A stretch of 61,953 nucleotides of DNA. Source: an uncultured Thermotogae bacterium (GTDB taxonomy: Bacteria; Bipolaricaulota; Bipolaricaulia; UBA7950; UBA9294). Positions 33,997 to 51,277 of the stretch are shown here, in pieces (positions within the stretch are counted from its first letter, which is position 1; each line of letters starts with the position of its first letter). A model generated the notes under the pieces. That model did no database searches and was not told the origin of the DNA. It worked only from the letters and a program-made list of their open reading frames with translations. The position numbers were made by a program, and so were the translations under genes. The stretch spans positions 1-61,953 of the forward strand of contig CAZKPU010000002.1 in NCBI GenBank assembly GCA_964554715.1, given 5' to 3'.

Positions 33997-34362
33997 ATGG
34001 CGCGGATAGCTGGTGTCAACCTGCCGAACGACAAGCGTGTCGAGATCGGTCTGACTTACATCTACGGGATCGGCCGAACTCGGGCCGTTGAGATCCTTGA
34101 GAGAGCAGGCGTGTCTCCGGACACCCGTGTGAAAGACCTTACAGAGCAAGAGGTCGCCACGCTTCGACGCGAAGTGGAGCAGTTCGAGGTAGAAGGTGAC
34201 CTTCGCCGAAGGGTCGTGGGCAGTATCCAGCGGTTGAAAGACATCAACGCCTACCGTGGGATCCGTCACAAGCGACGCCTGCCCGCCCGTGGTCAACGCA
34301 CGCGTGCCAACGCGAGAACCCTGAAGGGGCCTCGTCCGGCGAAAGCAGGGAAGAAGAGGTAA
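33997..34362 (+). CDS. rpsM: 30S ribosomal protein S13
   Basis: [27 protein letters not shown]. Confidence 0.98.
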
Positions 34363-34364
34363 AG

Positions 34365-35338: not shown

Positions 35339-35347
35339 GAGGGACAG

Positions 35348-36301
35348 ATGGACGGACTGGTTTTCCCGGACAAGATCCAAGCGGTGGAACTCGGCGAGAC
35401 GTACGGGAAGATCGTGATCTCTCCGCTGGAGCGGGGGATGGCAACGACGCTGGGGAATGGCATGCGGCGCACGTTGCTGTCGAGTATTCCGGGTGCTGCC
35501 GTGGTGCGCGTCATGTTCACCGGCAAGTACCATGAATACGACACGATCGAGGGTGTTCAGGAAGATATCCTTGAGATCATCTTGAACATCAAGTCGATTG
35601 CCTTGCGAGCTCATGGGGAAGAGGTCAAGCGGCTTACTGTGGAGAAGACCGGTCCGTGCGAAGTCACTGCAGGGGATTTGGTCCTCCCGCCGGGTGTGGA
35701 GATCATCAATCCCGACCTCCATCTGGCAACCCTGAACGGCGACGGCGTGCTTGAACTGGAACTCGAGGTCGAAACTGGCTACGGCTATCGAACGTCCGAG
35801 CTGAACAAGCTGTCAGACGGGGCGATCTCGGTGATTCCGATTGACGCCGACTTCTCACCTGTGCGCAAAGTGAACTTCTCCGTCGAGGAGACACGGGTTG
35901 GGGGACTGAGCGGATACGAGCGGCTGACGATGGAGGTTTCGACGGACGGAGGAATCCGGCCGGAAGAAGCGGTTTCGGAAGCAGCGAAGATCCTCTCGCA
36001 TCATCTCTCGATGTTTTCGGAGTTTGCGGCGCATCCGTTCGGAGTGGAGCTTGTCGAAGAGAGTCCCGAGGAAGACAGCAGGCTCTCGATTCTGCTCACG
36101 GACCTGGACGTGGATCCTCGTGCCTGCAACCTGCTTCGTGAGGCGGAAATCGTCACGCTTGGCGACTTGCTGTCGCGTCCGCGCGAAGAGCTCCTCGATA
36201 TCCATGGTTTCGGTGCGAAGACGCTCGGTCGAGTCGAGGAGCGGCTGCGTGAGCTGGACTATGAGCTGAGAAGCGAAGAGGAGATGCGAGATGCGTCATA
36301 G
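35348..36301 (+). CDS. rpoA: RNA polymerase subunit alpha
   Basis: PLERGMATTLGNGMRRTLLS, DADFSPV, CTD with RACNLL/FGAKT. Confidence 0.98.
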   Translation: MDGLVFPDKIQAVELGETYGKIVISPLERGMATTLGNGMRRTLLSSIPGAAVVRVMFTGKYHEYDTIEGVQEDILEIILNIKSIALRAHGEEVKRLTVEKTGPCEVTAGDLVLPPGVEIINPDLHLATLNGDGVLELELEVETGYGYRTSELNKLSDGAISVIPIDADFSPVRKVNFSVEETRVGGLSGYERLTMEVSTDGGIRPEEAVSEAAKILSHHLSMFSEFAAHPFGVELVEESPEEDSRLSILLTDLDVDPRACNLLREAEIVTLGDLLSRPREELLDIHGFGAKTLGRVEERLRELDYELRSEEEMRDAS

Positions 36302-36641
36302 ACGAAAGACCGAGAAGCTTGGGATGGACAAGGCGCGTCGGGAGAGCGTGCTTGCGAATCTATCCGTGGGGCTGATTCTTCACGAAAAGGTGGATACCAC
36401 GTTGGCTCGTGCGAAGGCGACGCAACGGTACTCCGAGCGGCTGATCACGCTTGCGCGAAGGGGCGATCAACACGCTCGCCGGCTCGTGTTCTCGCGGCTG
36501 CAGGACAAAGCCGCCGTAGACAAGTTGTTCAACGAGGTCGGGCCGAGATTCGCCGATCGACCGGGGGGATACACCCGTGTGTTGAAGCTCGGTCCCCGAG
36601 AAGGGGACGGGGCCGAACTGGCTCGTTTGATGTTTGTGTAG
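36291..36641 (+). CDS. rplQ: 50S ribosomal protein L17
   Basis: MRHR, RPGGYTRVLK. Confidence 0.98.
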   Translation: MRHRRKTEKLGMDKARRESVLANLSVGLILHEKVDTTLARAKATQRYSERLITLARRGDQHARRLVFSRLQDKAAVDKLFNEVGPRFADRPGGYTRVLKLGPREGDGAELARLMFV

Positions 36642-36681
36642 AGAGAAGGTCTGGCGCATCGAGCGACCGGACGAAAGGACG

Positions 36682-36722
36682 AGAAGCCGCGGTTCTTCGG
36701 GGAACGGCGGCTTCTTTTCTTA
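36682..36722 (+). terminator. intrinsic terminator of the ribosomal superoperon (between convergent genes)
   Basis: AGAAGCCGC/GCGGCTTCT stem with inner GTTC/GAAC, followed by a T-rich tract. Confidence 0.85.
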
Positions 36723-36734
36723 TCGGAACCGCGG

Positions 36735-37721
36735 TCACTCCGCGATGTCGGGAAGGTCGCCGCTTGCCGCTCTCTCGGAGAGGCGGGCGATCATGTCCTT
36801 GGCCATCGATGCAAGGTCGTACCCGGGGCTCCAATCCCATTGTTCCCGTGCCGCCGAGTCGTCGACTGCTTGAGGCCATGAATCCGCGATCTCCTGCCGG
36901 AAATCGGGCTCGAATGTGCACGTGAATCCGGGAACAAGGTCGGCGATCTGCTGGGCAAGCTCGCCGGCGGAGAAGCTGAGCGCGCCAACGTTGAAATCGG
37001 CATATCGGGAAAGCCGGCTTCGGTCCGCCTCCATCAGATCGATCGTCGCCTTGATGCAGTCGGGCATGTACATCATCGGGAGAACAGTGTCCTCTCGTAC
37101 GAAGCATGTGTAGCGCCTGCCGGCCACGGCGGCGTAGAAGATCGCCACTGCGTAGTCGGTGGTTCCACCGCCGGGAAGGGTCTCACTGGAGATGATCCCG
37201 GGATACCTCAGGCCGCGGATATCCATGCCGAACCGGCGGACGTAGTACTCGCACAACAGCTCGCCGGCAACTTTGGTGACACCGTACATGGTTGTCGGGC
37301 GAAGGACCGTGTTCTGAGGAGCACAGGCATGAGGGGTCTCGGGTCCGAAGACCGCAATCGAGCTGGGGAGGAAGATCTGATCGATCTCCAGCGCGCGCGC
37401 GGCCTCGAGAATGTGGGTCAACCCGTCGATGTTCACCTTCCACGCAAGCTGGGGCTTCTTCTCGCCGACGGCGGAGAGGATCGCAGACATGTGATAGAGC
37501 GTGTTGATCTTGTAGTCGGTGATTGCTTTCTCTATCTGAGCGCGATCGGTGACATCGATCCATGTAAAAGGACCCGAATCACGCAGAGTGGGGCCGGGTT
37601 GGGAACGGTGTCCTGCCGCGATGACGTTATCCGCTCCGTAACGATCACGCAACGCCAGCGTGAGCTCCGAACCGATTTGCCCGACTGCGCCGGTCACGAG
37701 GATGCGTTTCTGGGTGCTCAA
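36735..37721 (-). CDS. L-threonine 3-dehydrogenase (extended SDR / NAD-dependent epimerase family)
   Basis: ILVTGAVGQIGSEL, PSSIAVFG, MYGVTK, LRYPGIIS...GGGTTDY, IADSWP; TTG start after GGAGGA. Confidence 0.88.
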   Translation of the reverse strand: MSTQKRILVTGAVGQIGSELTLALRDRYGADNVIAAGHRSQPGPTLRDSGPFTWIDVTDRAQIEKAITDYKINTLYHMSAILSAVGEKKPQLAWKVNIDGLTHILEAARALEIDQIFLPSSIAVFGPETPHACAPQNTVLRPTTMYGVTKVAGELLCEYYVRRFGMDIRGLRYPGIISSETLPGGGTTDYAVAIFYAAVAGRRYTCFVREDTVLPMMYMPDCIKATIDLMEADRSRLSRYADFNVGALSFSAGELAQQIADLVPGFTCTFEPDFRQEIADSWPQAVDDSAAREQWDWSPGYDLASMAKDMIARLSERAASGDLPDIAE

Positions 37722-37903
37722 GGTTCCTCCTATCTGAAGTCCGTGGATGAACCAAGCGATTGTACGCAAGCGGCGAGGCAAGGACGAGGACGGGATCAAG
37801 ATGCGTCGCCGAACCGGCAGGACGGGTGCGAGAGCAACCGTGTTCGCACGGCGCCTTGTTCGGGTACACTACGATCTCGCGCTGTGCGGAGAGGGGGCGT
37901 CTC

Positions 37904-38800
37904 GTGATTCTGCTTGACATCCTGGCGCCGGTGTTCGTCATCGTGCTCCTTGGGTATGCCATCGGGCGAGTCAGTGAAGGGGTGGTGGCGCCGGTGGCGA
38001 AGGTTGCCTTCTTCATTCTGACGCCGTCGCTCATCATGAATACGCTCCTGACCGGCTCGATCTCAGCGACGGACGCGGGCACGATCGCACTGTTTGTGTT
38101 CATTGTGCACGGGGGGTTGTTCACCGGAACATGGGCGATCGGGCGCTTCCGAGGCTGGGGACGCGAACGAAGCGTTGCCTCATCGCTTGTAATGTCGTGC
38201 AGCAACGTCGGGAACTTCGGGCTTCCTGTGCTGTTGTTTGCGTTCGGAGAACAGGGATTCGCTCTGGGTGTGGTCTATGTTGTCGCGCATCAAGCGTTTC
38301 AGCTGATGCTTCCGTTGGGGGTTGCGGCGTGGGAAGAGGGAGAGGGAGTCAAAGCATGGCTCAGGAAGATCCTGAGTGTCCCGTGGATCTATGCGTTCGC
38401 TGCCGCCCTCCTGCTTCGTGGAACAGGGAGCGGCCTGCCCGATTTTCTCGGTCGTCCGTTGGCGATGTTGGCCCAAGCTGCGATTCCTGTGCAGCTTCTG
38501 ATCCTCGGCATGCAGCTATCCCGGGTGAAACTCAGAGGGATGTTGTCGGATGTAGCGGGATTGTCGACGGCGAAGCTTCTGATTCCACCGATCGTTGCGC
38601 TGGGTGTGACCGAACTGCTGGGTGTAGACGGGATCCTGCGCAGCGTTCTCGTATTGGAGGCAAGCGCGCCGGCGGCGGTGAACGCGCTCATCATCTCACT
38701 CCAGTACAACCGTGATCCGAGACTTGTATCGGGAACCCTATTGGTGACGACGCTTGGGAGTTTGATGACAATATCCGCACTGCTCATCTATCTTGCCTGA
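37904..38800 (+). CDS. AEC family (auxin efflux carrier/malate permease) transporter
   Basis: SNVGNFGLPV, PAAVNA, multiple TM segments; GTG start. Confidence 0.9.
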   Translation: MILLDILAPVFVIVLLGYAIGRVSEGVVAPVAKVAFFILTPSLIMNTLLTGSISATDAGTIALFVFIVHGGLFTGTWAIGRFRGWGRERSVASSLVMSCSNVGNFGLPVLLFAFGEQGFALGVVYVVAHQAFQLMLPLGVAAWEEGEGVKAWLRKILSVPWIYAFAAALLLRGTGSGLPDFLGRPLAMLAQAAIPVQLLILGMQLSRVKLRGMLSDVAGLSTAKLLIPPIVALGVTELLGVDGILRSVLVLEASAPAAVNALIISLQYNRDPRLVSGTLLVTTLGSLMTISALLIYLA

Positions 38801-38838
38801 GCGTTGCCGTTTCTGGCTGAGGGTGGCTATACTCGCAC
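38801..38838 (+). promoter_or_regulatory. putative promoter GCGTTGC-N16-TGGCTATACTCGCAC (copy 2), likely leaderless
   Basis: TTGCCG-N18-TATACT; ATG 7 nt after the -10; no SD. Confidence 0.6.
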
Positions 38839-38839
38839 G

Positions 38840-40972
38840 ATGGCAACAGCGATCGGAATCGACATAGGCGGAACGTTCGTCGACGTGGTGGTGTTGCTGG
38901 AGGACGGCAGGATTAAACGGTACAAGTTTCCGTCCACGCCGAACGCTCCCGCGCAGGGGGTTCTGCTGGGGCTGGAGCAACTCTGCAACCGTGAAATCGG
39001 AGCGGTTTCGGCGATGGATGTCGTGCGTGTCTCGCACGGTTCGACGGTGGCAACGAACGCTCTCCTCGAGGGACAATGGGCGCGCACAGGGCTCGTCACC
39101 ACCGAAGGGTTCCGAGACGTTCTCGAGATCGGGCGACAGAATCGATCTTCGCTTTACGATTTGGATGTATCCCGCCCACAGCCGATTGCTGCGCGCAACC
39201 TGCGGCTTGAAGTCCGCGAGCGCGTAGCGTCTGACGGAACGGTGCTAACGGCTTTGGATGAGGCATCTCTTGAAGCTGTTGTGCGCACTCTGCGTGAAGG
39301 CGGCGTCGAATCGGTGGCCGTTTGCCTGCTGTTTTCGTATGCCGCGCCCGCGCACGAGCGAAGGATCGGAGACGTATTGCGTTCATCGCTCGAAGGGGTG
39401 CCGGTGACGCTGTCGTCGCAGTTGCTTCCGGAGTTCCGGGAGTATGAGCGAACCTCAACCACCGTCACCAACGCTGCGTTGGTTCCACGAGTGCACGACT
39501 ACTTGGAGGAATTGCACACGCGGAGTCAACGAATGGGGATCCGATGTCCGTGGCAGATCATGCAATCAAGCGGCACGGTAACGAGCGTCTCACGTGCATC
39601 CGAGCAACCGGCAAGGCTGCTTCTCTCCGGCCCGGCAGGCGGGGTCGAGGGAGCGACCCGGATCGGGCGGGTCACGGGGATCGAGGATCTGATCGCTTTC
39701 GATATGGGGGGAACAAGCTGCGACGTTTCGCTCGTCCGCGGGGGAGAGGCGGCGTACACGATCGAGGCGGCGATCGGCGGATACCGCGTGGCTCTTCCGA
39801 TGGTTGACATCCATACGATCGGGGCAGGCGGGGGCAGCATCGCTTGGGTCGATGAAGGTGGATCGTTGCGGATCGGGCCTCAGAGTGCGGGAGCGGATCC
39901 GGGACCGGCGTGCTACGGAGCGGGTGGGATCGAGCCGACCGTCACCGACGCCCACCTTGTCCTTGGGCATCTTCACCCCGACTACCCTCTCGGGGGACTC
40001 TCTCGGCTGGATGTGGAGTCGGCGGCGTCGTCGATAGGTCGGCTTGCGAAACGCCTTGATCTATCCACGGAAAGAACAGCTCTGGGGATCCTCGAGGTGG
40101 CCGACGCGGCGATGGAAGGAGCCATCCGCGTGATCTCGGTGGAGCGCGGTCATGATCCACGGGATTTTGCGATCGTGGCCTTCGGTGGTGCGGGACCTCT
40201 CCACGCGACAAGTCTTGCCGATCGCTTGGGGGTCGAGCGGGTGATCATTCCATCGATGGCAGGCGTGCTGTCGGCGTACGGTCTGCTGGTCGGAAAGACG
40301 GGCTACGATCTTAGTCAGGGGATCGTGTCGCCACTGCATGCCTGTGACCAGCGGCTGGCTTCGGAAGCGTCGCGGCTGCTCTCGGAAGCTCGGGCGCGGC
40401 TTCTGGAGGACGAACCGGAGTGCCGAAGGATGGAGTTCGAAGTGCTGGGAGACCTCCGCTATATCGGTCAGGCTCACGAGCTTTCTTTGCGGCTTGCAAG
40501 CGGCACGGAAGGAGATGTGCGCGCGAGACTCCCGGAACTTGCGGCGAGAGCTGAGCGTGGATTCCACCAAGCCCATCGCGATCGATACGGGTACGACGCT
40601 TCGGAACGGTCGGTCGAGATCGTCTCTCTGCGCGTTCGCGTGATCGCGTGCGGAGAGGAGACGCCCGACCATGGATCGGCGTTTCTCTCTCGCGAGGCGA
40701 TTCGTAGCCTTCCTGTTCTGGATCGAGTCGAAACGCCAACGGTGGCAACCGGACTCGCCTGCTTCGGCACGGGCCGCGAACCGATTCAGATGGATACGCC
40801 GTTCGTGAAGCGTTCCGGGGTTCCACGCGATCGCAGGATGGCGGGACCGGTGGTGCTACTGAGTGACGACGCAACGACGGTTGTGCCGCCGGGCTGGGAA
40901 GCTGTGGAGGACTGCAGCGGGAACCTGGTACTTCTCCGGTGCGGCGGCCAACAGGAGGACACCTCGGCATGA
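38840..40972 (+). CDS. hydantoinase/5-oxoprolinase subunit A
   Basis: GIDIGGTFVD, HGSTVATNALLE, SGPAGG, DMGGTSCDV, FGGAGPLH. Confidence 0.93.
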   Translation: MATAIGIDIGGTFVDVVVLLEDGRIKRYKFPSTPNAPAQGVLLGLEQLCNREIGAVSAMDVVRVSHGSTVATNALLEGQWARTGLVTTEGFRDVLEIGRQNRSSLYDLDVSRPQPIAARNLRLEVRERVASDGTVLTALDEASLEAVVRTLREGGVESVAVCLLFSYAAPAHERRIGDVLRSSLEGVPVTLSSQLLPEFREYERTSTTVTNAALVPRVHDYLEELHTRSQRMGIRCPWQIMQSSGTVTSVSRASEQPARLLLSGPAGGVEGATRIGRVTGIEDLIAFDMGGTSCDVSLVRGGEAAYTIEAAIGGYRVALPMVDIHTIGAGGGSIAWVDEGGSLRIGPQSAGADPGPACYGAGGIEPTVTDAHLVLGHLHPDYPLGGLSRLDVESAASSIGRLAKRLDLSTERTALGILEVADAAMEGAIRVISVERGHDPRDFAIVAFGGAGPLHATSLADRLGVERVIIPSMAGVLSAYGLLVGKTGYDLSQGIVSPLHACDQRLASEASRLLSEARARLLEDEPECRRMEFEVLGDLRYIGQAHELSLRLASGTEGDVRARLPELAARAERGFHQAHRDRYGYDASERSVEIVSLRVRVIACGEETPDHGSAFLSREAIRSLPVLDRVETPTVATGLACFGTGREPIQMDTPFVKRSGVPRDRRMAGPVVLLSDDATTVVPPGWEAVEDCSGNLVLLRCGGQQEDTSA

Positions 40973-42669
40973 TCTCCAGATCCGATCCATCCCGGAAGAT
41001 CGATCCGATTACCCTTGAAGTCATCCGTCATGCGTTGGCAGCAGCGGCCGAAGAGATGAACGTCAACCTGATCCGCACTGCGTACAGTCCCAACATCAAA
41101 GAGCGGCGGGACTGCTCCTGTGCGTTGTTCGATGCCGGCGGCCGGCTTGTTGCGCAGGCGGAATCGATTCCGGTCCACCTTGGAGCGATGCCGTACTCCG
41201 TTGCCGCGGTTCGCGAGACGATTCGTGATCTTGCCGAAGGAGACGTTGCTATCATCAATGATCCGTTTGCCGGCGGGGCGCATCTGCCTGACGTGACGTT
41301 TGTCGCTCCTGTGTTCTTCGGAGGAGGGATCCTCGGATACGCGGCGTCTCGGGCTCATCATGCGGACATCGGTGGGAAGAATCCGGGTAGCGTTGCCGGG
41401 GATGCTACCGAGATTTTCCAGGAGGGACTGCGGATTCCGCCGATCCGTTTGTGGGTTCGGGGCAAGCTGCGAAGCGATGTCATGAACCTCGTACTTGCGA
41501 ACGTGCGGACCCCGGAGGAGCGAGAGGGCGATCTGCAGGCGCAGTATGCCGCTTGTGTGACCGGGATCCGGAGGATGACGTCGCTGGCGTCGCGGCATGG
41601 AGCTTCGCGCCTCGTTCGCGCGATGAGCGCCGTGCAGGAGTACTCGGAGCGGAGGATGCGCGGGCCGCTCCGCCGGATCCCCGACGGGCACGCGTCGTTT
41701 GAGGACGTTCTCGATGAGGATGGAGCCGGCAGTCGGAGCATCCGCATCGCTGTGCATGTCGCCATTGAAGGGGACCGTGTCTCGGTCGACTTTCGCGGAT
41801 CGAGCCCGCAAGTCGGGGGACCGATCAACGCCGTCGAAGCCGTCACAGCATCGGCCGTGTACTACGTTCTTCGCGCTGTGACCGATCCGTCGATTCCTCC
41901 GAACGATGGATGTTACCGGATGCTGGAGATCGATGCGCCCCGCGGATCGATCGTGAATGCGCTTCCTCCGGCAGCTGTCGTAGGCGGGAACTTGGAGACG
42001 TCTCAGCGGATCGTCGACTGTTTGCTGGGGGCGTTTCACAAGCTATGCCCGGAAAGAACGATGGCTGCTTGTCAGGGCACGATGAACAACGTGACGATCG
42101 GCGGGACGGATCCGCGAACCGGGAACGCCTACGCACTCTACGAGACGATTGCCGGCGGCATGGGCGGACGCCCGAATGCTGACGGAATTGACGGAATCCA
42201 CACGCATATGACCAACACGCTGAACACACCGGTCGAGGCGTTGGAGATCTCTTACCCGTTGCGTGTTGTCAGATATGAGTTGATTGCGGATAGTGGAGGG
42301 GACGGCATGTATCGTGGGGGGATGGGAGTACGGCGGGATCTGATGTCGATCGATCATACGGCAAGCGTGTCCTTGTTGACCGATCGGCGGACGACCGAAC
42401 CGTACGGGATGGATGGCGGACGGAACGGAGCGTGCGGCGAGAACGTCTTGATCGACAACGACAAGAGGGAGAGCCGGCTTCCCGGCAAAGCGGTCTTGAA
42501 GCTTCATCCCGGGGAGGTTCTCAGCATCCGCACTCCCGGAGGGGGAGGGTATGGGCTGTCCGAGGAGCGCGATTCGGCGTTGCGAAGGCGAGATCGTATC
42601 GAAACCCGAGTGACTGAGCAGCAGACAGGCTTGGAGCCGGGAATTGCTTCCGAAGGCTCGAAGTTGTGA
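40969..42669 (+). CDS. hydantoinase B/5-oxoprolinase subunit B
   Basis: SPNIKERRDCSCALFD, IPVHLG, NDPFAGGAHLPD, HADIGG, HMTNT, TPGGGGYG; ATGA overlap with subunit A. Confidence 0.93.
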   Translation: MISRSDPSRKIDPITLEVIRHALAAAAEEMNVNLIRTAYSPNIKERRDCSCALFDAGGRLVAQAESIPVHLGAMPYSVAAVRETIRDLAEGDVAIINDPFAGGAHLPDVTFVAPVFFGGGILGYAASRAHHADIGGKNPGSVAGDATEIFQEGLRIPPIRLWVRGKLRSDVMNLVLANVRTPEEREGDLQAQYAACVTGIRRMTSLASRHGASRLVRAMSAVQEYSERRMRGPLRRIPDGHASFEDVLDEDGAGSRSIRIAVHVAIEGDRVSVDFRGSSPQVGGPINAVEAVTASAVYYVLRAVTDPSIPPNDGCYRMLEIDAPRGSIVNALPPAAVVGGNLETSQRIVDCLLGAFHKLCPERTMAACQGTMNNVTIGGTDPRTGNAYALYETIAGGMGGRPNADGIDGIHTHMTNTLNTPVEALEISYPLRVVRYELIADSGGDGMYRGGMGVRRDLMSIDHTASVSLLTDRRTTEPYGMDGGRNGACGENVLIDNDKRESRLPGKAVLKLHPGEVLSIRTPGGGGYGLSEERDSALRRRDRIETRVTEQQTGLEPGIASEGSKL

Positions 42670-42681
42670 AAGGAGAGCCAG

Positions 42682-43995
42682 ATGAGCAGGGCAATCACAT
42701 GGACATCGCGAAGGGGTTTCGCGTGGGTGGTGGGACTGGGGGTGATCGGCTGTCTTGCTCTGGTTGGGATCGCCGCTGCTGCAGAGTCTCCCGTCTCGAT
42801 TGTCCGCCCCGAAGCTGAGGGGTTCCGCGTATCGGGGACAGCCGCGGAGCGCGTCTGGTGCGTGACGCAAGGAGACTACGTAGAGTGGATGTGGACCGGC
42901 CAAGAGGTCGACGAGAACCGGATCGAGCGGGCTGCCATCAACATCACGGCGTGGACCTCGGATCGGGTTCTGGGGGATGCAGGAGCGGATGTGGATGTCT
43001 TGATCTCGATTCGCTGTTTGGGCGGCAGCGTTGTCGAGTCGGGGGTCCTGCACCTCGTCAATACGTTTGAGCCGCAGGGAGCCGCTGCGCTGGAGGTCGA
43101 GCGATCGGCGTATGTGGCCCGGGGGGCGTACGTTCTCCGGAACCCGGGGGTGATCTCCCGGGGGTTCCGAGTGCGACTTGAGCCAGTGACGCCGACCACC
43201 GGGTCCGAGTCCATGACCGGGACCCGATCGAGTGCAGGCGTGTTCGCGGCGGAGAGTGGGGACGCAGGGTTGGCGTATCGCGTCTCCGAGAGCGTTGGCG
43301 GGTTGGCGGAGATCCTCGCTGATCCACAGGCGTACGAGGGAAGAAGTGTGCGGCTTGATGGAGCCTTCTACGGGGCCGTTACCGAACTCGTGGACGGCGT
43401 TCCCCCTGAGTGCACGTTTGGCGGTTGTGACTTCTGGGTCTTCGGGGTCGATGGTTGGTACGTCTATGTGATCGGATCGCTCCCGGCGGGTCTGGACGCG
43501 GCGGTGCCCGGCGATCTGGGAGCAAGTGTGACGATCGAGGGAACCGTTCGCGTGCAGCTCAGCAGAGCGGCTTGTCCATACGCCTACGTGGATCTGGTCT
43601 CGGCGATCCCCGGTGAAGCGGCGTTCGACCTTCGCATCGTCGGCATAGGCACGGCAGACGGTCAAGAGGTCGTGCTTCCGTCGGGCGCCACGTTGGCGAT
43701 CGACCTGCCCTCGAACCCCACGACGGGATACCGATGGGAGGTTGAGTCGCTGGAGCCTGAAGGGGTCGCTTCCATCGCGGGCAACGGATCGGGCTTTGAC
43801 GTCCCGGATCCCGCGGATCGTGACCGTGTTGGCGTGGGGGGCATCCAGCGGTTCGTCGTCCTCGGCGAAGGCGTAGGAGATGCGGTTCTACAGCTGGTCT
43901 ACCGACACGCATCGGGGGACGCAGCGTCCGACGGATTCCAGCTAACGATCCATGTTGTCGCCCCGTCCGTCCTGATCAGACCGGACGAATCGTAG
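42682..43995 (+). CDS. secreted multidomain protein with C-terminal chagasin/I42 protease-inhibitor-like domain
   Basis: signal peptide; LPSNPTTGYRW and GVGG-QRF...L-LVYR motifs. Confidence 0.75.
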   Translation: MSRAITWTSRRGFAWVVGLGVIGCLALVGIAAAAESPVSIVRPEAEGFRVSGTAAERVWCVTQGDYVEWMWTGQEVDENRIERAAINITAWTSDRVLGDAGADVDVLISIRCLGGSVVESGVLHLVNTFEPQGAAALEVERSAYVARGAYVLRNPGVISRGFRVRLEPVTPTTGSESMTGTRSSAGVFAAESGDAGLAYRVSESVGGLAEILADPQAYEGRSVRLDGAFYGAVTELVDGVPPECTFGGCDFWVFGVDGWYVYVIGSLPAGLDAAVPGDLGASVTIEGTVRVQLSRAACPYAYVDLVSAIPGEAAFDLRIVGIGTADGQEVVLPSGATLAIDLPSNPTTGYRWEVESLEPEGVASIAGNGSGFDVPDPADRDRVGVGGIQRFVVLGEGVGDAVLQLVYRHASGDAASDGFQLTIHVVAPSVLIRPDES

Positions 43996-44045
43996 CCGGA
44001 AAGGGTGCGGTCTCCGTCCGACGGCATGGGGCCCGGCACCGACGA

Positions 44046-44513
44046 CTAGGGTTCCGGCTCTACCGGTGCGACAAGATCGGCGGTCCACTCGAAGGTATGG
44101 GGAGTCCCGTCGTTCCATTGTGTTCCTGTTCCCGTGATTTGCGAGTTGTCGACTTCGCCGTCCAGAGCGATCTGGACAAGAAGCGACGGCGTGACCAGAT
44201 CCATCGTTCCGCTTGCGTCGAGAGAGAAGTCTCGGCTTCCGACAACACCGTCATTGATTACGATGGCAAACGATTGGCCACCGGGGCCGGGCAGTCGCAC
44301 TTCCCCTTGGAGAGACGAGCCGTCCTGAGTAAGCACCATGGAGAACGGACTCCACAAGCCGTTTGCGTCCCACGTAATCCGTCCGGACCAAGTCCCTCCC
44401 ACCTCCGCCGGAGGAGACAAGACGCTGCATCCGGCAAACAGAACGGAACACAGAACACATCCGCACAACGCGGTCACCCGGTAGGCTCTCCTCTTACCAC
44501 AATTCCACATCAT
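44046..44513 (-). CDS. putative lipoprotein, beta-rich
   Basis: lipobox LFAGC, GGTWSG strand start, SD GAGGGG. Confidence 0.75.
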   Translation of the reverse strand: MMWNCGKRRAYRVTALCGCVLCSVLFAGCSVLSPPAEVGGTWSGRITWDANGLWSPFSMVLTQDGSSLQGEVRLPGPGGQSFAIVINDGVVGSRDFSLDASGTMDLVTPSLLVQIALDGEVDNSQITGTGTQWNDGTPHTFEWTADLVAPVEPEP

Positions 44514-44877
44514 GTCCCCCTCTTCGAGACTGCAAGGATGATTCTGGTGAGCCGAGCCGTCTGCAGCAAGGGAAAGTGACCCCCGTACATTGGGTCCGAT
44601 GTCTCAAACTCACTGCGAACTTGCCCTCGTGGAACGAAACGTCATAGGGTCATCGTGTGTAACTGTGATGTCTGCAGCGGACGGTCGTCGAAAGGGATCA
44701 CCCACTGCGAGGGCCGCCGGCGGATTCCGATCTCCTCACGGTTCCTCTGGTGGTGCTGGCGTGACGGGTCCCGGGAACAGGGAGTTCCGGACGGATCGCT
44801 CCGGCCTTCGACCTAGATCCGGCTGTGTGGTGCATCCTTGAGCGATCGTGTAAGGATGCTTGGCAAAGGAGGTTGAC

Positions 44878-47800
44878 GTGAGATCGGCAAGGTTGCTCTT
44901 TCTGGTTGGACTCGTCTTGGTGGGTGCCTTCGCGGGAGCCACGTGGGCGCAGAGCTCCACCGAGATACCGGTTTTGGCGAATGTTGTGCAACTCGCGCAA
45001 GCTTCGGCTACGGCCGCAGCTGCTGCGGCGGCCGAAGCGGAGGCGATCGAGGAGGAAGCCCGCCTTCTGCTTGCAGAGCTGGATTGGGAAGATGTGTTGA
45101 CGGAGGCGGCGGAGGCTGTCAGCGAAGCGCAGGCTGCCGCGATGTCGGTTGCAGCGGCGGAGGCCGAGGTCGAAGCGACAGCTGCCAGTCATGCCGAAGC
45201 CTGCAGTGAGGCGTTGGCGTCGGCGCAGGCGAGCGCCACGGCGGTCGAATCGGTCTACGCTTGGGCACAAGCTCGAGCGGACGCGTTTGCTGCCGCGTGC
45301 GCCGATGCGCGAGCCCGTGCTGAGGCAAGTGCCTCCGCGTGCGCAGTAGCGATTGCGGAAGCGGAGGCGACAGCGGACGCGTTTGCACTGGCGTGTGCGG
45401 AAGCCGTCGCGCATGCGGGAGCGTCGGCGTCGGCGTGTGCGTCCGCGAGGGCTGAGGCGGAAGCATCCGTTGAAGCGATGGCGCTAGCGATTGCAGCAGC
45501 TGCTGCGGAGGCACAAGCGAGTGTTTCGGCGTGTGTATCTGTTGAGGCGTCGGTGGCGAGCTACGCGGAAGCGATCGCGGAGGCGATGGCGGAAGCGATC
45601 GCCATGGCGGAAGTTCGAGTGACAGCGGCGGCTGCCGCGTATGCCAGCGCCAGCGCCGAGGTGGAAGTCTGCGCGGAGCTTGCCGCAACTGCCGAAGTCC
45701 GCGCCACGGCTGTGGCCCAAGCCGCTGCTCAGGCGGCCGCCTACGCAGCGGCCACGGCATCGGCGTACTCCCAAGCGCAGAGCATCGCTCAAGTCGTTGG
45801 ACAGAATATCGCGCAGGAAGTTCCCTGCGGAGTCGTCGTTGGTGAAGTCCGAGGTGTTGTACAGGCGATCGCGACAGCGGTTGCCGAAGCGGATGCTGCG
45901 GCGCAAGCCGCGGCGCAAGCGGCCGGACTGGCTCAAGCGACGGCCTCAGCGCAGGCGGAGGCGGCTGCGTCTGCCTATGCGAGAGCGGTCGCCGAAGCCG
46001 ATGCATGCGCGGTGGCCTACGCAGAAGCACGGGCAGCCGCTCAAGCGATCGCTCGGGCGAGCGCCTCTGCAGAGGCGGAGGCGTTTGCGGCAGCGGAGGC
46101 GGTAGCGGAGGCCCGAGCGGAAGCGGTCGCGTACGCTCAAGCGATTGCGTTTGCGGCGGCGCGAGCGGAGGCGGCCGCGGAAGCGGCGGCAGAAGCGATC
46201 GCCATCGCCGAGAGCGATGCAAGAGCGCAGGCGACGTCGGCTGCTTCGGCGTGTGCGATGGCATCTGCACATGCAGAAGCGATGGCGCGAGCGATGGCCG
46301 GAGCGAAGGCTACCGCAGAAGCGAGTGCTGCGGCGATCGCCAGCTCGTGCGCGGAAGCATCTGCACACGCAGAGGCAATGGCGTCGGCGGTTGCTCAGGC
46401 GAGAGCCACGGCTCGCGCTGCGGCGACGGCTGCGGCGACGGCCTGCGCGGAAGCGGATGCGTCGGCGAGAGCATGGGCGGCAGCGTATGCCACGGCCAGT
46501 GCTCGTGCCGCTGCAGCTGCGAGTGCGTCGGCAAGTGCATTTGCAAGGGCTCAAGCTGCGGCTTCTACGATGAGTGATGCAGTGTCATCCGCAGTGGCCA
46601 GGGTTTCGATCCAAGCGGCTGCGTGTGCAGCGGCGTCCGCGGAGGCGCAGGCAGCGGCGGCTAGCTGTGCCAGCGCCGCCGGCACAGCGAGTGCGTCGGC
46701 GGAGAGTGAGGCATCGGCCGCTGGAACGGGCTTTGCCTACGAGCAGGCGTATGCGGCGGCCGTAGCGACAAGCTCGGCGGATGCGTTCGCGTATGCTCAG
46801 GCGGCTGCTGCGGCTGCCGCGCGAGCGCAAGCGGCTGCGCATGCGGCTGCGGAGGCTTACGCGGAGGCCCAAGCCGCTGCGACCAGTGGAGTGCAGGCGA
46901 TCTGCGAGGCCACGGCCACGGCACAGGCCGAAGCGCGGGCGTGTGTCTCAGTCTACGCGGATGTGTCGGCCGAGGCCGCAGTCTATGCAGCGGCGGTGGC
47001 ACAAGCGATGAGTGAAGCCCAGGCCGCCGCGGTTGCAGCAGCGAAGGCCGAAGCGGAAGCTCAGGCCGAAGTGGCCGTTGCGGTCGATGCGATGGCTGCG
47101 GCGCAGGCGGAAGCCGAAGCCTATGCTCATGCGGCGGCGCTTGCGCAGGCTGAGGCGGCGGCACAGGTCGGTGTTGGCGTGGAAGCGATCGCCGTTGCGC
47201 ATGCCGATGCGTATGCAGCGGCCCTCGCGGGAGCTCGCGCGGCCGCGTCTGCGGAGGCCGAAGGGGCCGTTGCTGCGCAAGCGGCAGCAGCGGCGTACGC
47301 TGATGCCGTCGCCAATGCGTTTGCGGCGGCTCGTGCAGAGGCATCCGCTCACGTGCGGGCGTTCACTGCGGTGAGGGTGTTGGCGTCGGCTCAAGCGGAG
47401 GCGCTGGCATCGGCTGAGGCGTTGGCCGTGGCGTTCGCTGCGGCATCAGCGTCGGCCCAGGCGGCAGCGCAGGCATCGGTTCGAGCGACGGTGTCAGCCG
47501 AAGCGTGTGCATCCGCTCTCGCGCAGGCCTTCGCGATGGCGAATGCGGCTGCAAGTGCCCAGGCTACCGCGGAAACCTCTGTTGAGGTTGTTCCGGAGAT
47601 CGAACTGTCGATCCGTTCGTTCATCGATCCGGAGTGCTTGCTGCCCGTTTGCGAGCGGGAGATTCCTACGATCTGTCCCGCCTGCGATTCGTGCTGTCCA
47701 GAACCGCAAGAGAGACCTGATGACGTCATCCCGACACCGGGGTGTCCGGAAACGGTCTCTCTCACCTGGGAGATCGGAGAGGTCCCGAGCGGCATGTTCT

Positions 47801-48819
47801 ATCGGAGCAGCCTCTCGATCCCCTATTCGGTTTGGGCACCGATGGCCGGCTACGAACTTGCCGGGGCGATCCCGATCAGCAGCAGCATGCCGCCGGATGG
47901 ACAGATCAGCGTCGATGTCTCGAGCCGCATGGCCTCGCTGTCGGGAACCTTCGAAGCGGGTGCCAGTTACAGCGCTACGTTCGATCTGATCGACTACCGC
48001 CAATGCACGATCGGAAGGCTCACGGTGGTCCTCACCGGTGAGGGCCGGTACGTTCCGGATCTGAGCCGTGTTTGCATGACGGTCACGGCGGTTCACGAGC
48101 AGCCGGGGTTCCTGTTCTTCTCGGGGACAACGACCGAGATTGCGGCCAGGATCACGGTGAACTACGCGCAGGAGCGGCAAACCCCGTTCCAGCTGTGCGA
48201 TGACCCGAGAGAGCGGTACAACCTGACGGCCAGCTCCTATACGTTCAGCACCGAACGGGAAGAGATCCCGTTTGACCGGTGGGAGAAGTACGATCCCAAT
48301 TCGGATGCGTGGGTCACGATCGGAGAGCAGGAAACGGTCAGCGTTTCCATGGAAGCGGAGGCCGCGTATCGGGCGGTGTACACGGGTGAAGGACCGACGA
48401 TTACGGTCACCCCGGTCCCCGATGTTTCGGTGGTGACCCCGTGCCTGGAGATTAGCGCGGTGGTCATGTACGAGCGGATTCGATCAACAACGTTCACGTT
48501 GCAGCAATCGCCGCAGTACGAGACGGAGGCGATCTATCCGCAGATCATGGTGGATCGACAGGCAAGAGTTGCCCCGTTCCAGCTGTGCGACTCGCAGCGA
48601 CGGCAAGTCACGCTGGAGCCGGAAGCGGAGCACTGGACCGAGGAAGAACAGTACCTCGAGTTCTGGAAGTGGCAGCGCTACGATCCGCAGAGTGAGACGT
48701 GGAACGATATCATCATGCTGCAGCTTTTCGGTTCCGCGCCTTCGAACGCCCTGCGAGTCACGCTGGGATCCAGCGGTCAGATCCGGGCCGTCTATCGGCA
48801 AGGCACGATGCTCTACTAG
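44878..48819 (+). CDS. giant secreted (Ala-X)n-repeat protein with Cys-rich linker and tandem C-terminal beta domains; unknown function
   Basis: 1319-codon ORF; GTG after AAGGAGG; signal peptide ending ATWA; GCN codons at alternating positions. Confidence 0.9.
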   Translation: MRSARLLFLVGLVLVGAFAGATWAQSSTEIPVLANVVQLAQASATAAAAAAAEAEAIEEEARLLLAELDWEDVLTEAAEAVSEAQAAAMSVAAAEAEVEATAASHAEACSEALASAQASATAVESVYAWAQARADAFAAACADARARAEASASACAVAIAEAEATADAFALACAEAVAHAGASASACASARAEAEASVEAMALAIAAAAAEAQASVSACVSVEASVASYAEAIAEAMAEAIAMAEVRVTAAAAAYASASAEVEVCAELAATAEVRATAVAQAAAQAAAYAAATASAYSQAQSIAQVVGQNIAQEVPCGVVVGEVRGVVQAIATAVAEADAAAQAAAQAAGLAQATASAQAEAAASAYARAVAEADACAVAYAEARAAAQAIARASASAEAEAFAAAEAVAEARAEAVAYAQAIAFAAARAEAAAEAAAEAIAIAESDARAQATSAASACAMASAHAEAMARAMAGAKATAEASAAAIASSCAEASAHAEAMASAVAQARATARAAATAAATACAEADASARAWAAAYATASARAAAAASASASAFARAQAAASTMSDAVSSAVARVSIQAAACAAASAEAQAAAASCASAAGTASASAESEASAAGTGFAYEQAYAAAVATSSADAFAYAQAAAAAAARAQAAAHAAAEAYAEAQAAATSGVQAICEATATAQAEARACVSVYADVSAEAAVYAAAVAQAMSEAQAAAVAAAKAEAEAQAEVAVAVDAMAAAQAEAEAYAHAAALAQAEAAAQVGVGVEAIAVAHADAYAAALAGARAAASAEAEGAVAAQAAAAAYADAVANAFAAARAEASAHVRAFTAVRVLASAQAEALASAEALAVAFAAASASAQAAAQASVRATVSAEACASALAQAFAMANAAASAQATAETSVEVVPEIELSIRSFIDPECLLPVCEREIPTICPACDSCCPEPQERPDDVIPTPGCPETVSLTWEIGEVPSGMFYRSSLSIPYSVWAPMAGYELAGAIPISSSMPPDGQISVDVSSRMASLSGTFEAGASYSATFDLIDYRQCTIGRLTVVLTGEGRYVPDLSRVCMTVTAVHEQPGFLFFSGTTTEIAARITVNYAQERQTPFQLCDDPRERYNLTASSYTFSTEREEIPFDRWEKYDPNSDAWVTIGEQETVSVSMEAEAAYRAVYTGEGPTITVTPVPDVSVVTPCLEISAVVMYERIRSTTFTLQQSPQYETEAIYPQIMVDRQARVAPFQLCDSQRRQVTLEPEAEHWTEEEQYLEFWKWQRYDPQSETWNDIIMLQLFGSAPSNALRVTLGSSGQIRAVYRQGTMLY
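45157..47580 (+). repeat. degenerate 96-nt (32-aa) tandem repeat / (Ala-X)n low-complexity region
   Basis: GCGGACGCGTTTGC at 45277 and 45373; GCATCTGCACA at 46261 and 46357 (both pairs 96 nt apart). Confidence 0.85.
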
Positions 48820-48900
48820 GTGTTTACGAGGGCCGGGGCGGGTTTTCCCGCCCCTCGGCCGCCATAGCGATCATCGATGGACATGCGGTCCATCAGAGGA

Positions 48901-48941
48901 CGGACGGACCCCATATTGGGATCCGTCCGATTCTTTCTTTC
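48901..48941 (+). terminator. intrinsic terminator downstream of the Ala-rich gene
   Basis: CGGACGGA-C-CCCA/TGGG-A-TCCGTCCG stem followed by ATTCTTTCTTTC. Confidence 0.8.
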
Positions 48942-49008
48942 ACCTAAGTGGAGAGACCTCGTCTTGCCTGTGCTTCCGCCGGGAAACGACGCTGTCTCGG
49001 GCCGTGGA

Positions 49009-49875
49009 TCACGGGATCGGCAGGTAGTCGACAACCGTGGGCAGCCCGTCGAACCGGATGAAGAACCCGACGTAGTCCTGCGGGTCGTCGTCTACATAGC
49101 CCGTCCAGACCTCCACCAGCCTTGCATAGAACAGATCGAGAAGCCCCACGGGGATCTCGGCGAGCGGTAACACCAGGGTCAGCGGGACCCCGGTAACCAG
49201 CTCCACAATCCCTGCATCAAACGTGTCGAAGATCGTCACGGCTTCCGGGAGCCACGAGGTCGTATACGCCAGTCCGGCGAACACCTCGCACGGGCCGACG
49301 TAGGTTGTGTCGCCGGAGTTGACGATCGTGATCTGCACCTCGCCGCCCGGCGCTCCCGTTGCCCCTCCGGCGCCAGCCGGCGCCTCGATCGAGACGATGT
49401 CGGCGCGGACGACCGGCGGAGGGGGGATCTCGTACTGGTAACGCAGAATCGATTCCAAAATGGTTACAAGCCACCCACTGGATGTGCTGTCGATGTCCAG
49501 CCAGATGTCGAGCAGACCGTCTCCGAATAACGTCGTGAGATCAGAAATGGTGAGGACAGTGTCCGCTGTTCCGTGATTCTGGCCGGTCAGCGCTCCCAAT
49601 AGGACTCCCTCTGCGTACACAAGATCACGCTCACCCTGGGCGTAATCCACATCCCAGGCCTTGATTGTCAACGTCGCATCTGGGAGGATCCAACCCGGAC
49701 GGATCCCGGCGCCCAGCGTGTGTGTCCAACCGAAGTCCTGTAAGGCTCCCCGGTACTGCCCGAACCCCGGCTCCGAATCCAGAACCTGTTCCACCGTCAC
49801 TGGAGTCGCAAGAGAGATGACCCCGGTAACGATCACTCCGATCAGCAGGAAGAGAACAACCCTTCCCTTCATCAT
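49009..49875 (-). CDS. secreted two-domain protein downstream of a c-di-GMP riboswitch
   Basis: signal peptide; ATLTIKAWDVD...LLGALTG jelly-roll-like domain; PPPP linker; Ig/CARDB-like second domain; SD GAGGAGG. Confidence 0.8.
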   Translation of the reverse strand: MMKGRVVLFLLIGVIVTGVISLATPVTVEQVLDSEPGFGQYRGALQDFGWTHTLGAGIRPGWILPDATLTIKAWDVDYAQGERDLVYAEGVLLGALTGQNHGTADTVLTISDLTTLFGDGLLDIWLDIDSTSSGWLVTILESILRYQYEIPPPPVVRADIVSIEAPAGAGGATGAPGGEVQITIVNSGDTTYVGPCEVFAGLAYTTSWLPEAVTIFDTFDAGIVELVTGVPLTLVLPLAEIPVGLLDLFYARLVEVWTGYVDDDPQDYVGFFIRFDGLPTVVDYLPIP

Positions 49876-50138
49876 CGCCTCCTCTTTCCCGTTTGAGTTT
49901 CCGATGCTTCTTTGAGGGACGAACTGCATTGCGGACGAATCCAACGTCGCAATCCTCCTCCCGGTGCAACCCGTGAGAGAAATCGGACCTGCGACACCCT
50001 ATCCGGCGAGCTTGTGGAAGAGACGGATCGGATTTCGAGAGCGGTGGATGCATCAAGCGGTTTCGCGGAGCACAAGGACCCGTTGCTGCCCAACTCCTTG
50101 AACGAACGGACCACATCAGCATTGCCGGCCTCCCGGCT

Positions 50139-50213
50139 CCGGCAACTCGGCTACCCGATTCGATGTGGCCCGTGGCTTTGCGTCCCGCTCTCTCGCGCGG
50201 TTTGCCCTTTTCG
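50139..50213 (-). ncRNA. c-di-GMP-I (GEMM) riboswitch
   Basis: minus strand GGCAAACCGCGC-GAGA-GAGCGGGACGCAAAGCCACGGGCC...GGTAGCCGAGTTGCC; P1 GGCAA/TTGCC, GNRA-capped P2, GGGACGCAAAGC core. Confidence 0.88.
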
Positions 50214-50228
50214 GAGCATCCTTTTCGG

Positions 50229-50258
50229 ACCATAGAGCAGATATCTGACGGATGTCAA
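50229..50258 (-). promoter_or_regulatory. promoter driving the riboswitch transcript
   Basis: minus strand TTGACA-N18-TATGGT just upstream of the aptamer. Confidence 0.7.
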
Positions 50259-50428
50259 GACAGGGATCCAACACTGCATCGGCGAGCTGCTTCGAGCTTG
50301 CTTTGCCGGGAGCCATGCAGATTGCTTCGCGGGCATCCGTGAGGGCTTCCGTGGTCACGATCCCTGCATGCAAGAGGCCGGCGTTTGGTGTTGCGGATAT
50401 ACTTTGCGCATAGGGAGGTCTATCGACG

Positions 50429-51277
50429 ATGCCTGAACTGCCGGACCTGGAGGTGTTGCGGGAGAGCTTGATCGAGCGTGTGCTCGATCGACCGATCCGG
50501 TCTGCCAGAGCCTTGCGTCCGGGGATCCTGAAGACGTTCGATCCGCCGCTCGAAACTCTGCTCGGAGAATCCTTCCGTGAGATCACAAGGCGGGGAAAAC
50601 ACTTGATCTTCGCGTTCAAGGAACACAGCTTTCTGGTGATCCACTTGATGCTCGCCGGGAGGTTGGTGGTGACCGGAAGCGACACCAAGGCGACCAAGGC
50701 GACGGGGTTCCTGCTGGGTTTGGAGGGTGGTCAGGACTTGCGGCTGGTGGAAGGTGGACATATCAAACGGGCCCGTGTCTATGTGGTTACAGATCCGCAG
50801 AACGTTCCGGGGATCGCCGGCGCCGGCGTCGAGCCGCTTTCGGACGGATTCACCGTGGAGGCGTTGACTCGAATCGTCTCGGGGACCCGTCGACAAGCCA
50901 AGAACGTCCTCATCGATCCGGCGATCATCGCCGGGATCGGCACGTCCTACGCCGACGAGATTCTCTATGAGGCTCGGATCTCTCCGCTTCGCTACGTGAG
51001 CAAGCTCGAAGCGGCCGAAATCCAGCGCCTCCACGATGCGATCCGACACGTGTTGTCATCGTCGATCGATGCCGTTCGGGAACAGATCGGGGACGGTGCG
51101 CTGGTGAACCCCCCTCGGGGACACATGAAGATCTACAAACGGGAAGGACACCCGTGTCCGCAATGCGGCGCGAAGATCGCCGAGATCCGCTACGCGCAAA
51201 CCCGCACCTACTACTGTCCCGACTGCCAGACAAGCGGAGAGAAGCTCCCGGATAGACGTCGCTGGATCACGAAGTAG
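50429..51277 (+). CDS. Fpg/Nei family DNA glycosylase/AP lyase
   Basis: MPELPD N-terminus, RRGKHL, H2TH AGIGTSYADE, zinc finger CPQC...CPDCQ. Confidence 0.92.
   Translation: MPELPDLEVLRESLIERVLDRPIRSARALRPGILKTFDPPLETLLGESFREITRRGKHLIFAFKEHSFLVIHLMLAGRLVVTGSDTKATKATGFLLGLEGGQDLRLVEGGHIKRARVYVVTDPQNVPGIAGAGVEPLSDGFTVEALTRIVSGTRRQAKNVLIDPAIIAGIGTSYADEILYEARISPLRYVSKLEAAEIQRLHDAIRHVLSSSIDAVREQIGDGALVNPPRGHMKIYKREGHPCPQCGAKIAEIRYAQTRTYYCPDCQTSGEKLPDRRRWITK

Follow-up and report, generated by a model that had tools for sequence, protein, structure and literature searches.

A c-di-GMP-I riboswitch that probably gates the start of a leader reading frame upstream of a conserved gene in a Bipolaricaulota-like bacterium

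We examined a stretch of 61,953 nt of DNA, hereafter the window (positions 1–61,953 of the forward strand of contig CAZKPU010000002.1, assembly GCA_964554715.1), which is chromosomal because it carries infB, rpoC, fusA and secY. Within it, a 553-nt gap separates two divergent genes, one for an fpg/nei-type glycosylase and the other, on the minus strand, for a 287-aa protein whose closest named relatives come from metagenome-assembled genomes (MAGs) of Candidatus Bipolaricaulota. The gap holds an aptamer of the cyclic di-GMP (c-di-GMP)-I riboswitch class (RF01051, or GEMM-I, clan CL00126), preceded by a promoter and separated by a leader of about 250 nt from the gene for the 287-aa protein, hereafter the regulated or main gene. 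Immediately after the aptamer there is a second, previously overlooked Shine-Dalgarno sequence (SD) with its own AUG, which opens an upstream open reading frame (uORF). We consider it probable that the aptamer gates this start site in response to c-di-GMP, and that translation of the uORF relays the signal to the regulated gene. The coordinates of the features are collected in Table 1.

The comparative set consisted of ten distinct lineages of the regulated gene, obtained from two protein searches and contig look-ups. Six of them, designated the window clade (the window, L001, L012, L005, L009 and L011/L015), show protein identities of 64–100 % and have the hypD-hypE-fpg neighbourhood in common, whereas the four lineages of the marine clade (L026, L029, L031 and L032, from a seawater metagenome) show identities of 46–50 % and a different gene neighbourhood. 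A scan of genomes with a DNA pattern added a single locus, L015, of the same lineage as L011, and the same kind of search in the metagenome returned no additional contigs.

Table 1. Features of the riboswitch locus, in positions of the window; Vc2 is the reference aptamer from Vibrio cholerae.
Feature	Position	Strand	Details
fpg/nei-type glycosylase gene	50429-51277	+	hypE and hypD beyond
-35 hexamer TTGACA	50253..50258	-	TCTTGACA unchanged in six window-clade orthologs
-10 hexamer TATGGT	50229..50234	-	18-nt spacer; kept in all window-clade orthologs
c-di-GMP-I aptamer	50136..50217	-	Rfam match and covariation in 10 lineages
P1, GCUCCG / CGGAGC	50217-50212 / 50141-50136	-	
P2	50200-50185	-	GAGA tetraloop at 50194-50191
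P3	50177-50144	-	
G equivalent to Vc2 G20	50206	-	ligand-specificity nucleotide; covariance-model alignment; G in 10/10 lineages
A equivalent to Vc2 A47	50179	-	mismatch to the G of the RF03167 model; A in 10/10 lineages
C equivalent to Vc2 C92	50142	-	covariance-model alignment; invariant in 10/10 lineages
Predicted competing long helix	50106..50173	-	P3 5′ strand ACGGGCCACAUC (50173-50162) / uORF codons 2-6 GAUGUGGUCCGU (50117-50106); minimum-free-energy folds and duplex tests
"Anti-P1" hairpin	50121..50146	-	GUUGCCGG (50146-50139) / CCGGCAAU (50128-50121); exact complementarity
SD1 GGGAGG	50129..50134	-	6 nt upstream of AUG1; unchanged in six window-clade lineages
AUG1	50122-50120	-	uORF start
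uORF, 163 codons	49631..50122	-	covers the leader from end to end and stops 242 nt into the main gene, out of frame with it
C-rich, G-poor tract	50004..50063	-	24 C and 10 G per 60 nt
SD2 GGAGG	49878..49882	-	unchanged in six window-clade lineages; also before the main start in four marine-clade lineages
Regulated gene, 287-aa protein	49009..49872	-	start at the second ATG, in agreement with the SD spacing and with P0001 (287 aa) in the database

An earlier reading of this DNA from its letters alone (the sequence-only reading) had proposed a GEMM-I aptamer with its own promoter and a covariance-model search against Rfam as a check. We ran this search, which matched positions 50215–50137 of the minus strand to RF03167 with 68.5 bits (gathering score 59, E-value 4e-14), and the promoter TTGACA-N18-TATGGT is in place. 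A second member of the c-di-GMP-I clan also scored above its own gathering score at the same site and was dropped as an overlap, and the aptamers of L009, L012 and L031 scored best with RF01051 (46.4, 55.4 and 51.8 bits, respectively; gathering score 35). On the minus strand, the aptamer core is followed by ...GAGUUGCCGGAGC. The aptamer is found upstream of every full-length ortholog in the correct orientation, in all ten lineages and in two gene neighbourhoods. In the ten-lineage alignment, 90 % of the cells in the aptamer helices are paired, compared with 28–44 % in slid controls, five aptamer pairs are changed on both sides, and the covariation score is higher than that of 499 of 500 shuffles. 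At the fifth pair of P1, for instance, six lineages have C-G and four have U-A, and covariation also occurs in P2, whose tetraloop is GAGA, GAAA, GGAA or GCAA depending on the lineage. These results indicate that the riboswitch is genuine, under selection and tied to the regulated gene. A permissive Rfam scan of positions 49700–50400 found only the c-di-GMP-I aptamer and no second RNA family in the leader.

The promoter agrees with the consensus at 10 of 12 positions; it is also the sole sigma-70-like site identified by a promoter scan of positions 48800–50600, with 0.3 expected. The P1 5′ strand, GCUCCG, begins ca. 11 nt after the −10 hexamer, and transcription probably starts around position 50222, a few nucleotides before P1. 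Promoter, aptamer and leader recur together upstream of the orthologous gene in all ten lineages. The window lineage alone contains a direct repeat, TCCGAAAAGG, at positions 50229–50220 and 50215–50206 of the minus strand; its first copy overlaps the end of the −10 hexamer and the second comprises the P1 5′ strand and the junction. Downstream, the scan of 48800–50600 found no terminator-like sites, and no U-tract follows the hairpin described below, in agreement with the sequence-only reading. Nevertheless, terminator-like sites show no enrichment throughout a 20-kb part of the window (positions 30000–49999; 11 found and 12.9 expected from shuffles) and, therefore, their absence after the aptamer says little; the organism may rely little on canonical U-tract terminators.

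It had also been noticed that the 3′ strand of P1 can be captured by a sequence further downstream, and the two arms of this "anti-P1" hairpin are indeed complementary. Its loop of 10 nt, AGCCGGGAGG, contains the SD that we designate SD1, and its 3′ arm includes the A and the U of the uORF start codon, AUG1. The sequence-only reading situated the SD about 260 nt further on, which holds for that of the annotated gene (SD2, GGAGG, 255 nt after the aptamer), but it missed the second SD and AUG inside the hairpin, and its conclusion that the mechanism is not standard SD occlusion does not stand: the loop holds GGGAGG with an AUG 6 nt on, and an SD followed by an AUG is kept in all ten lineages, being the gene's own start in L032. 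In the six window-clade lineages GGGAGG-N6-ATG is invariant, whereas the spacer, everything downstream and the hairpin are variable; the latter is complete in the window and in L005, weaker in L001, L012 and L011, and missing from L009. In the marine clade, GGAGAGG-N4-ATG stands 13–14 nt after P1, and in L032 the sequence downstream of the aptamer reads AAAGGAGGAAAC-ATG, with AGGAGG-N5-ATG 12 nt after the aptamer. This ATG of L032 is the conserved MWRK start of the regulated gene itself, which has no leader in this lineage. Ten of ten lineages thus have an SD and an AUG 12–15 nt after the aptamer, in three sequence versions, and in nine of them these open a uORF. GGGAGG-N6-ATG has a chance expectation of 0.93 in the window, so a single occurrence is not rare and the weight of the argument rests on conservation. 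Because three versions of the SD and AUG are situated at one position, and one of them is a proven gene start by homology, a functional ribosome-binding site is the best reading. The platform is therefore most likely of the ordinary compact kind that masks a start site, aimed here at the uORF, and the ca. 250-nt stretch previously taken for an unusually long expression platform is a leader whose length varies among lineages (12, 158, 204 or 250–258 nt).

The locus of L032 (L032:10–96) represents a natural leaderless variant. The two ribosome-binding regions in its sister lineages look similar (CCAGAGAUGGAGAGG and CCGGAAAAGGAGG), which suggests a deletion or duplication between them.

The uORF is 120 codons long in L001 and L012, 123 in L005, 64 in L009 and 32 in each of L026, L029 and L031, and is fused in frame with the main gene in L011. 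Its frame is open through the whole leader in five of the six window-clade lineages, with a per-lineage chance of 0.08–0.25 in dinucleotide shuffles. Additionally, between the window and L001 the 250-nt leader has 67 substitutions and is free of indels, compared to four indels in the 175 nt upstream of the promoter. The open frame and the lack of indels suggest that either the frame of the uORF or the length of the leader matters. A conserved leader peptide was rejected: the substitutions between the window and L001 are spread evenly over codon positions (22/22/23, with 38 non-synonymous and seven synonymous codon changes), the G+C content at third codon positions bears no coding signature (0.54–0.58 in the uORFs, 0.54 in the window, vs. 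0.68–0.76 in genes), and the single conserved block, CCGUCUCUUCC, falls in different frames among lineages.

All leaders carry a C-rich stretch, which contains 27–30 C and 7–9 G in the marine clade, and only 1.8 % of the 60-nt segments in the 62-kb window reach a C minus G excess of at least 14. The tract of the window is a possible Rho loading site. The leader of the window also contains a stable hairpin at 49946–49995 (minus strand) with a GUCGCA/UGCGAC base; hairpins occur at the same relative place, with unrelated sequences, in L005 (GGUUCC-CCGUCU / AGACGG-GGAACC) and L009 (GAUCUGUUCCAU / AUGGAACGGAUC). A 20-nt sequence, GACCGCUGUGAUGUCRCCGG (L026:2895–2914, also in L029 and L031), lies unchanged between the uORF stop and the main SD of these three marine-clade lineages, the leader around it having diverged.

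The regulated gene starts with GGAGG-N5-ATG. Its 287-aa product has an N-terminal hydrophobic segment, either a signal or a membrane anchor, and two beta-sandwich-like domains; residues 22–150 are predicted with confidence as a beta-sandwich (predicted local distance difference test score 80–94). It matched no family in Pfam or NCBIfam, and a structure search of the PDB yielded only generic beta-sandwich matches, of the GH2 or immunoglobulin type, with low template-modelling scores. The block CCGUCUCUUCC was tried and discarded as an anti-SD sequence, since its duplex energies with SD1 and SD2 were no better than those of shuffled sequences. In L012 (L012:2666–3528) and L013 (GCA_963680185.1) the gene is split by a frameshift into ORFs of 111 and 175 aa, with promoter, aptamer and leader intact, which reflects either a recent pseudogene or an assembly error.

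We then considered the structures that could compete with the aptamer. In minimum-free-energy folds of the window, L009 and L011, the start site of the uORF lies inside an extended hairpin, whose outer helix pairs the P3 5′ strand with uORF codons 2–6 (GGGCCACACAAA/UUUGUGUGGCUU in L009 and GGCCACGCAAA/UUUGCGUGGUU in L011) and encloses a UUGCCGG/CCGGCAA hairpin holding the SD and the AUG. The competing helix occurs in another register in L001 and L012 (AAAAUCGGGUCGC/GCGAUCCGUUUU), and analogous pairings between the aptamer 3′ end and the start-codon region are found in the marine clade (GGUUGCCA/UGGUGAUC) and L032 (UGCCA/UGGCG). In the consensus of this fold, 88 % of the cells are paired in the six window-clade orthologs, vs. 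ca. 45 % in slid controls. The energy required to open the region from SD1 to 13 nt past AUG1 was computed for the free ensemble and with the aptamer enforced, and was higher in the free ensemble for all six window-clade orthologs: 24.9/11.1 (the window), 20.4/13.8, 15.4/11.0, 16.8/14.9, 22.6/9.5 (L009) and 19.5/11.2 kcal/mol (free/enforced). The competing fold is also 15–30 kcal/mol more stable than the enforced aptamer, hence the switch would be kinetic and co-transcriptional, since only the capture of the ligand during transcription could keep the aptamer folded. In the add adenine riboswitch, a known ON switch, the 3′ end of the aptamer likewise pairs with the region of the start codon. 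If the start site is functional, these models point with fair probability to a start-site-masking switch that is ON in the presence of the ligand.

The following mechanism is, in our opinion, probable. A sigma-70-type promoter would start the transcript a few nucleotides before the c-di-GMP-I aptamer, whose direct target would be the ribosome-binding site immediately 3′ of P1 (GGGAGG, 6 nt, and the AUG at 50122). In the absence of ligand, the 3′ half of the aptamer would be drawn into the extended hairpin, through the UUGCCGG/CCGGCAA pairing and that of the P3 5′ strand with codons 2–6, with the start codon buried and the SD trapped in a loop, and the uORF would not be translated. With c-di-GMP, P1, P2 and P3 would be locked during transcription, leaving the start site open for ribosomes to load. 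The relay to the main gene would then depend on the passage of ribosomes through the 250-nt leader, the uORF peptide apparently not being under selection; our leading guess is that translating ribosomes would shield the C-rich, G-poor tract from Rho and the transcript from decay, with a lesser contribution from the melting of leader structure in front of the strong SD of the main gene. The output would be a secreted or membrane-anchored beta-sandwich protein, which fits the surface or adhesion functions induced by c-di-GMP. A further elaboration is more speculative, and we hold it only tentatively: the uORF, of unconstrained sequence, might have as its sole job the covering of a Rho-loading tract, such that the riboswitch would reach a gene 250 nt away only indirectly, and insertion or deletion between two ribosome-binding sites of similar sequence might have built or collapsed the module, as could be reflected in L032 without a leader, the marine leaders of 158 nt and the window leader of 250 nt. 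If true, this would be the first uORF/Rho relay for the c-di-GMP-I class, in a candidate phylum without genetics.

Several observations weigh against this mechanism. Both c-di-GMP binding and translation of the uORF are predictions. The covariation of the competing helix is not above that of shuffles among the six window-clade sequences, the hairpin named in the sequence-only reading is absent from L009, where the SD and AUG remain, the opening energies of the marine clade and L032 do not clearly differ between the two states, and in L005 and L011 the gap between these energies shrinks as more downstream sequence is included. The evidence from L032 consists of a single 1.1-kb contig. As for the relay, the uORF stop is not conserved, being situated 63 nt before the main ATG in L009, 45–46 nt before it in L026, L029 and L031, or 113, 116 or 242 nt past it, or replaced by an in-frame fusion; this scatter makes coupling by termination and reinitiation unlikely. 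The main start has opening energies of 10–22 kcal/mol, within the range of nine control gene starts (10.5–22.4 kcal/mol). A special masking of the main SD was thus rejected and a relay through its unmasking receives no specific support. Finally, no rho gene was found in the sequence examined, which covers only a small part of any genome and is uninformative in this respect.

The same aptamer and start site could instead work as an OFF switch, in which the c-di-GMP-bound state frees uORF codons 2–6 to pair with the SD-spacer region and mask the start, the site being used without ligand. In agreement with this, the folds of L005, L009 and L011 with the aptamer enforced contain a local AGGCCGGCAA/UUGCGUGGCUU hairpin of about −6 to −12 kcal/mol, the opening energies with ligand are still 9.5–15 kcal/mol, and the two states are hard to tell apart in the marine clade. 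Nevertheless, we consider the OFF direction unlikely, because opening the start site costs more energy when the aptamer is not enforced in six of six window-clade orthologs, the pairing of the aptamer 3′ end with the region of the start codon follows the design of known ON switches such as add, and surface proteins are normally induced by high c-di-GMP.

Less likely still is the mechanism implied by the sequence-only reading, in which the hairpin serves only to disrupt P1, long-range structure in an untranslated 260-nt leader signals to the distant SD, and GGGAGG...AUG is kept only as RNA structure. The bases of SD1 and AUG1 are mostly paired in the competing hairpin, the leader contains stable hairpins, and an upstream CGYCCCUC sequence pairs with the main SD in four of six minimum-free-energy folds, all of which would fit such a role. 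However, neither the sequence nor the length of the leader is conserved between clades (12 to 258 nt), L032 keeps the aptamer without any leader, the pairing of the conserved C/U block with either SD is no better than that of shuffled sequence, and the main start site is not unusually masked. Moreover, G133, G136 and A143 of the SD and AUG are invariant though unpaired in the model, and three sequence versions of an SD with an AUG occupy the same place.

With respect to the ligand, c-di-GMP contacts G20, A47 and C92 in Vc2, with a spacing of 27 nt between G20 and A47 (PMC4744006). The window has the layout G-GC-AAA-P2-GAC-GC-A, with the same G20-A47 spacing. The RF03167 (c-di-GMP-I-GGC) and RF01051 consensus sequences differ at a single binding-site position, GACGC-G-AA in the former and GACGC-A-AA in the latter, and the model consensus and the family name suggest that the "GGC" label refers to a G where A47 would stand. 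All ten lineages have A here, hence the binding site is that of the parent class. Membership of the GGC variant was rejected on these grounds, and RF03167 outscores RF01051 because of the short P3, in which the internal extension of the RF01051 consensus is missing. The sequence-only reading had taken the GAGA loop of P2 as a reason to question specificity, but GAGA belongs to the GNRA tetraloops, as does GAAA, the consensus of the family, and G20, A47 and C92 are canonical; the inspection of the specificity nucleotide that it advised identified the G at 50206. An A at position 20 is said (work of Kellenberger and of Nelson, both 2015, cited in PMC7266159) to define sensors of cyclic AMP-GMP (c-AMP-GMP, GEMM-Ib), and this specificity was likewise discarded, position 20 being G throughout. 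A variant class with another ligand, be it the c-di-GMP-I-GGC candidate or c-AMP-GMP, would agree with RF03167 being the top Rfam model for the window and most orthologs; it is very improbable in view of the A at the distinguishing position after GACGC, the G at position 20 and the three orthologs that score best with RF01051. We thus predict, with good confidence, that the ligand is c-di-GMP. Proteins with GGDEF domains occur in Bipolaricaulota (PMC10086821), which makes c-di-GMP plausible in the host; no GGDEF or EAL genes were found in the sequence examined, which is a small and hence uninformative fraction of any genome.

Least credible of all is an aptamer that binds c-di-GMP and no longer regulates the downstream gene, a relic or masked switch like Bc1 of Bacillus thuringiensis, which has a long platform and no in vivo response (PMC11218506): although the main gene has its own strong, unmasked SD, purifying selection, accompanied by compensatory changes, has kept the aptamer, the promoter and the start site, and this conservation spans lineages of 46–100 % protein identity and two gene neighbourhoods.

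On its other side, the regulated gene faces the convergent gene of an alanine-rich protein of 1319 aa (44860–48819, plus strand), and the regulated unit is therefore monocistronic. This protein, which matched no known family, has a signal peptide, ca. 900 aa of low-complexity sequence rich in Ala, Glu and Ser, and a C-terminal region of ca. 400 aa with two repeats around "PFQLCD"; its gene is syntenic across all window-clade orthologs, and it may be a surface fibre or an S-layer-like protein. Further along, just 3′ of a hydantoinase A/B pair, there is a gene for a 437-aa protein (42682–43995, plus strand) with a C-terminal peptidase inhibitor domain of the chagasin family (PF09394). The N-terminal beta-sandwich domain of the 287-aa protein (motifs DFGWTHT, AWDVD and LDIDST) is also present in MAGs labelled KSB1, NC10, Phycisphaerales and Methanocellales (loci L016–L022), and is joined to 3D (PF06725) or SLT (PF01464) cell-wall domains in further homologs from the databases. 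It seems to represent a domain family that has yet to be described. Among the homologs from other phyla that have only this N-terminal domain (L016–L022), no riboswitch was found.

The locus also has consequences for annotation. The top Rfam model, that of the GGC variant, is the wrong subclass here, and gene callers predict spurious ORFs across the riboswitch (139 aa in L005, 179 aa in L009 and, on the opposite strand, 299 aa in L026) or extend the gene to the uORF start; in L011 (L011:455–1516) and L015, where this start is in frame, they give a 353-aa product with a 66-aa N-terminal extension. Additionally, a gene that seems too distant from its riboswitch need not imply an exotic platform, as the search for an SD and AUG right after P1 resolved the present case. 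The natural series of leader lengths, including the leaderless form, offers a ready-made experiment on the relay through uORF translation. More generally, the locus would connect c-di-GMP signalling to a concrete output in a deep-branching lineage that is uncultured; this output is a conserved secreted protein, for which the connection would be a first functional handle.

Riboswitch-controlled uORFs are known from Mycobacterium tuberculosis, namely the ppe2 uORF under a B12 switch (PMC11260477) and, together with Rho, the rv1805A uORF under the Mbox, a Mg2+ switch (PMC12810186). The control of Rho termination by uORFs and riboswitches has been reviewed (PMC12360218), and coupling to Rho is common among translational riboswitches and uORFs (PMC12360218, PMC12810186). 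Literature searches on this point returned no report of a riboswitch-uORF arrangement for a c-di-GMP riboswitch. The predicted system resembles those of M. tuberculosis in having a translational platform on the uORF start and in the proposed dependence of downstream expression on uORF translation and Rho and, as in the ppe2/pe20 type, the SD and start codon of the uORF lie within the expression platform. It differs in the class of ligand and in the uORF, which is long (32–163 codons) and whose peptide is not conserved. Contrary to the termination-reinitiation of ppe2, the uORF stop is neither at the main start nor overlapping it. With Bc1 (PMC11218506) it shares a c-di-GMP-I aptamer located far upstream of the gene, although Bc1 uses two intrinsic terminators and here there is no terminator-like site, the corresponding place being taken by an SD and an AUG.

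Regarding the aptamer itself, the three-helix junction, the GNRA tetraloop of P2, the GACGC-AAAGCC core, G20, A47 and C92, and the C of the interhelical pair are all as in Vc2 and Vc1 of V. cholerae (RF01051) and, as in Vc1-gbpA, the aptamer is placed in the 5′ leader of a gene for a surface protein. It departs from the RF01051 type in its short P3, without the internal extension, in its Bipolaricaulota-like host and in that the controlled start would be that of a uORF. Its overall sequence and short P3 are similar to those of RF03167, from which it is set apart by the A at the position of A47 in place of the conserved G of the model. On every count that can be tested by comparison, the element is a member of the c-di-GMP-I class, with an ordinary aptamer and a predicted platform like those of start-site-masking ON switches.

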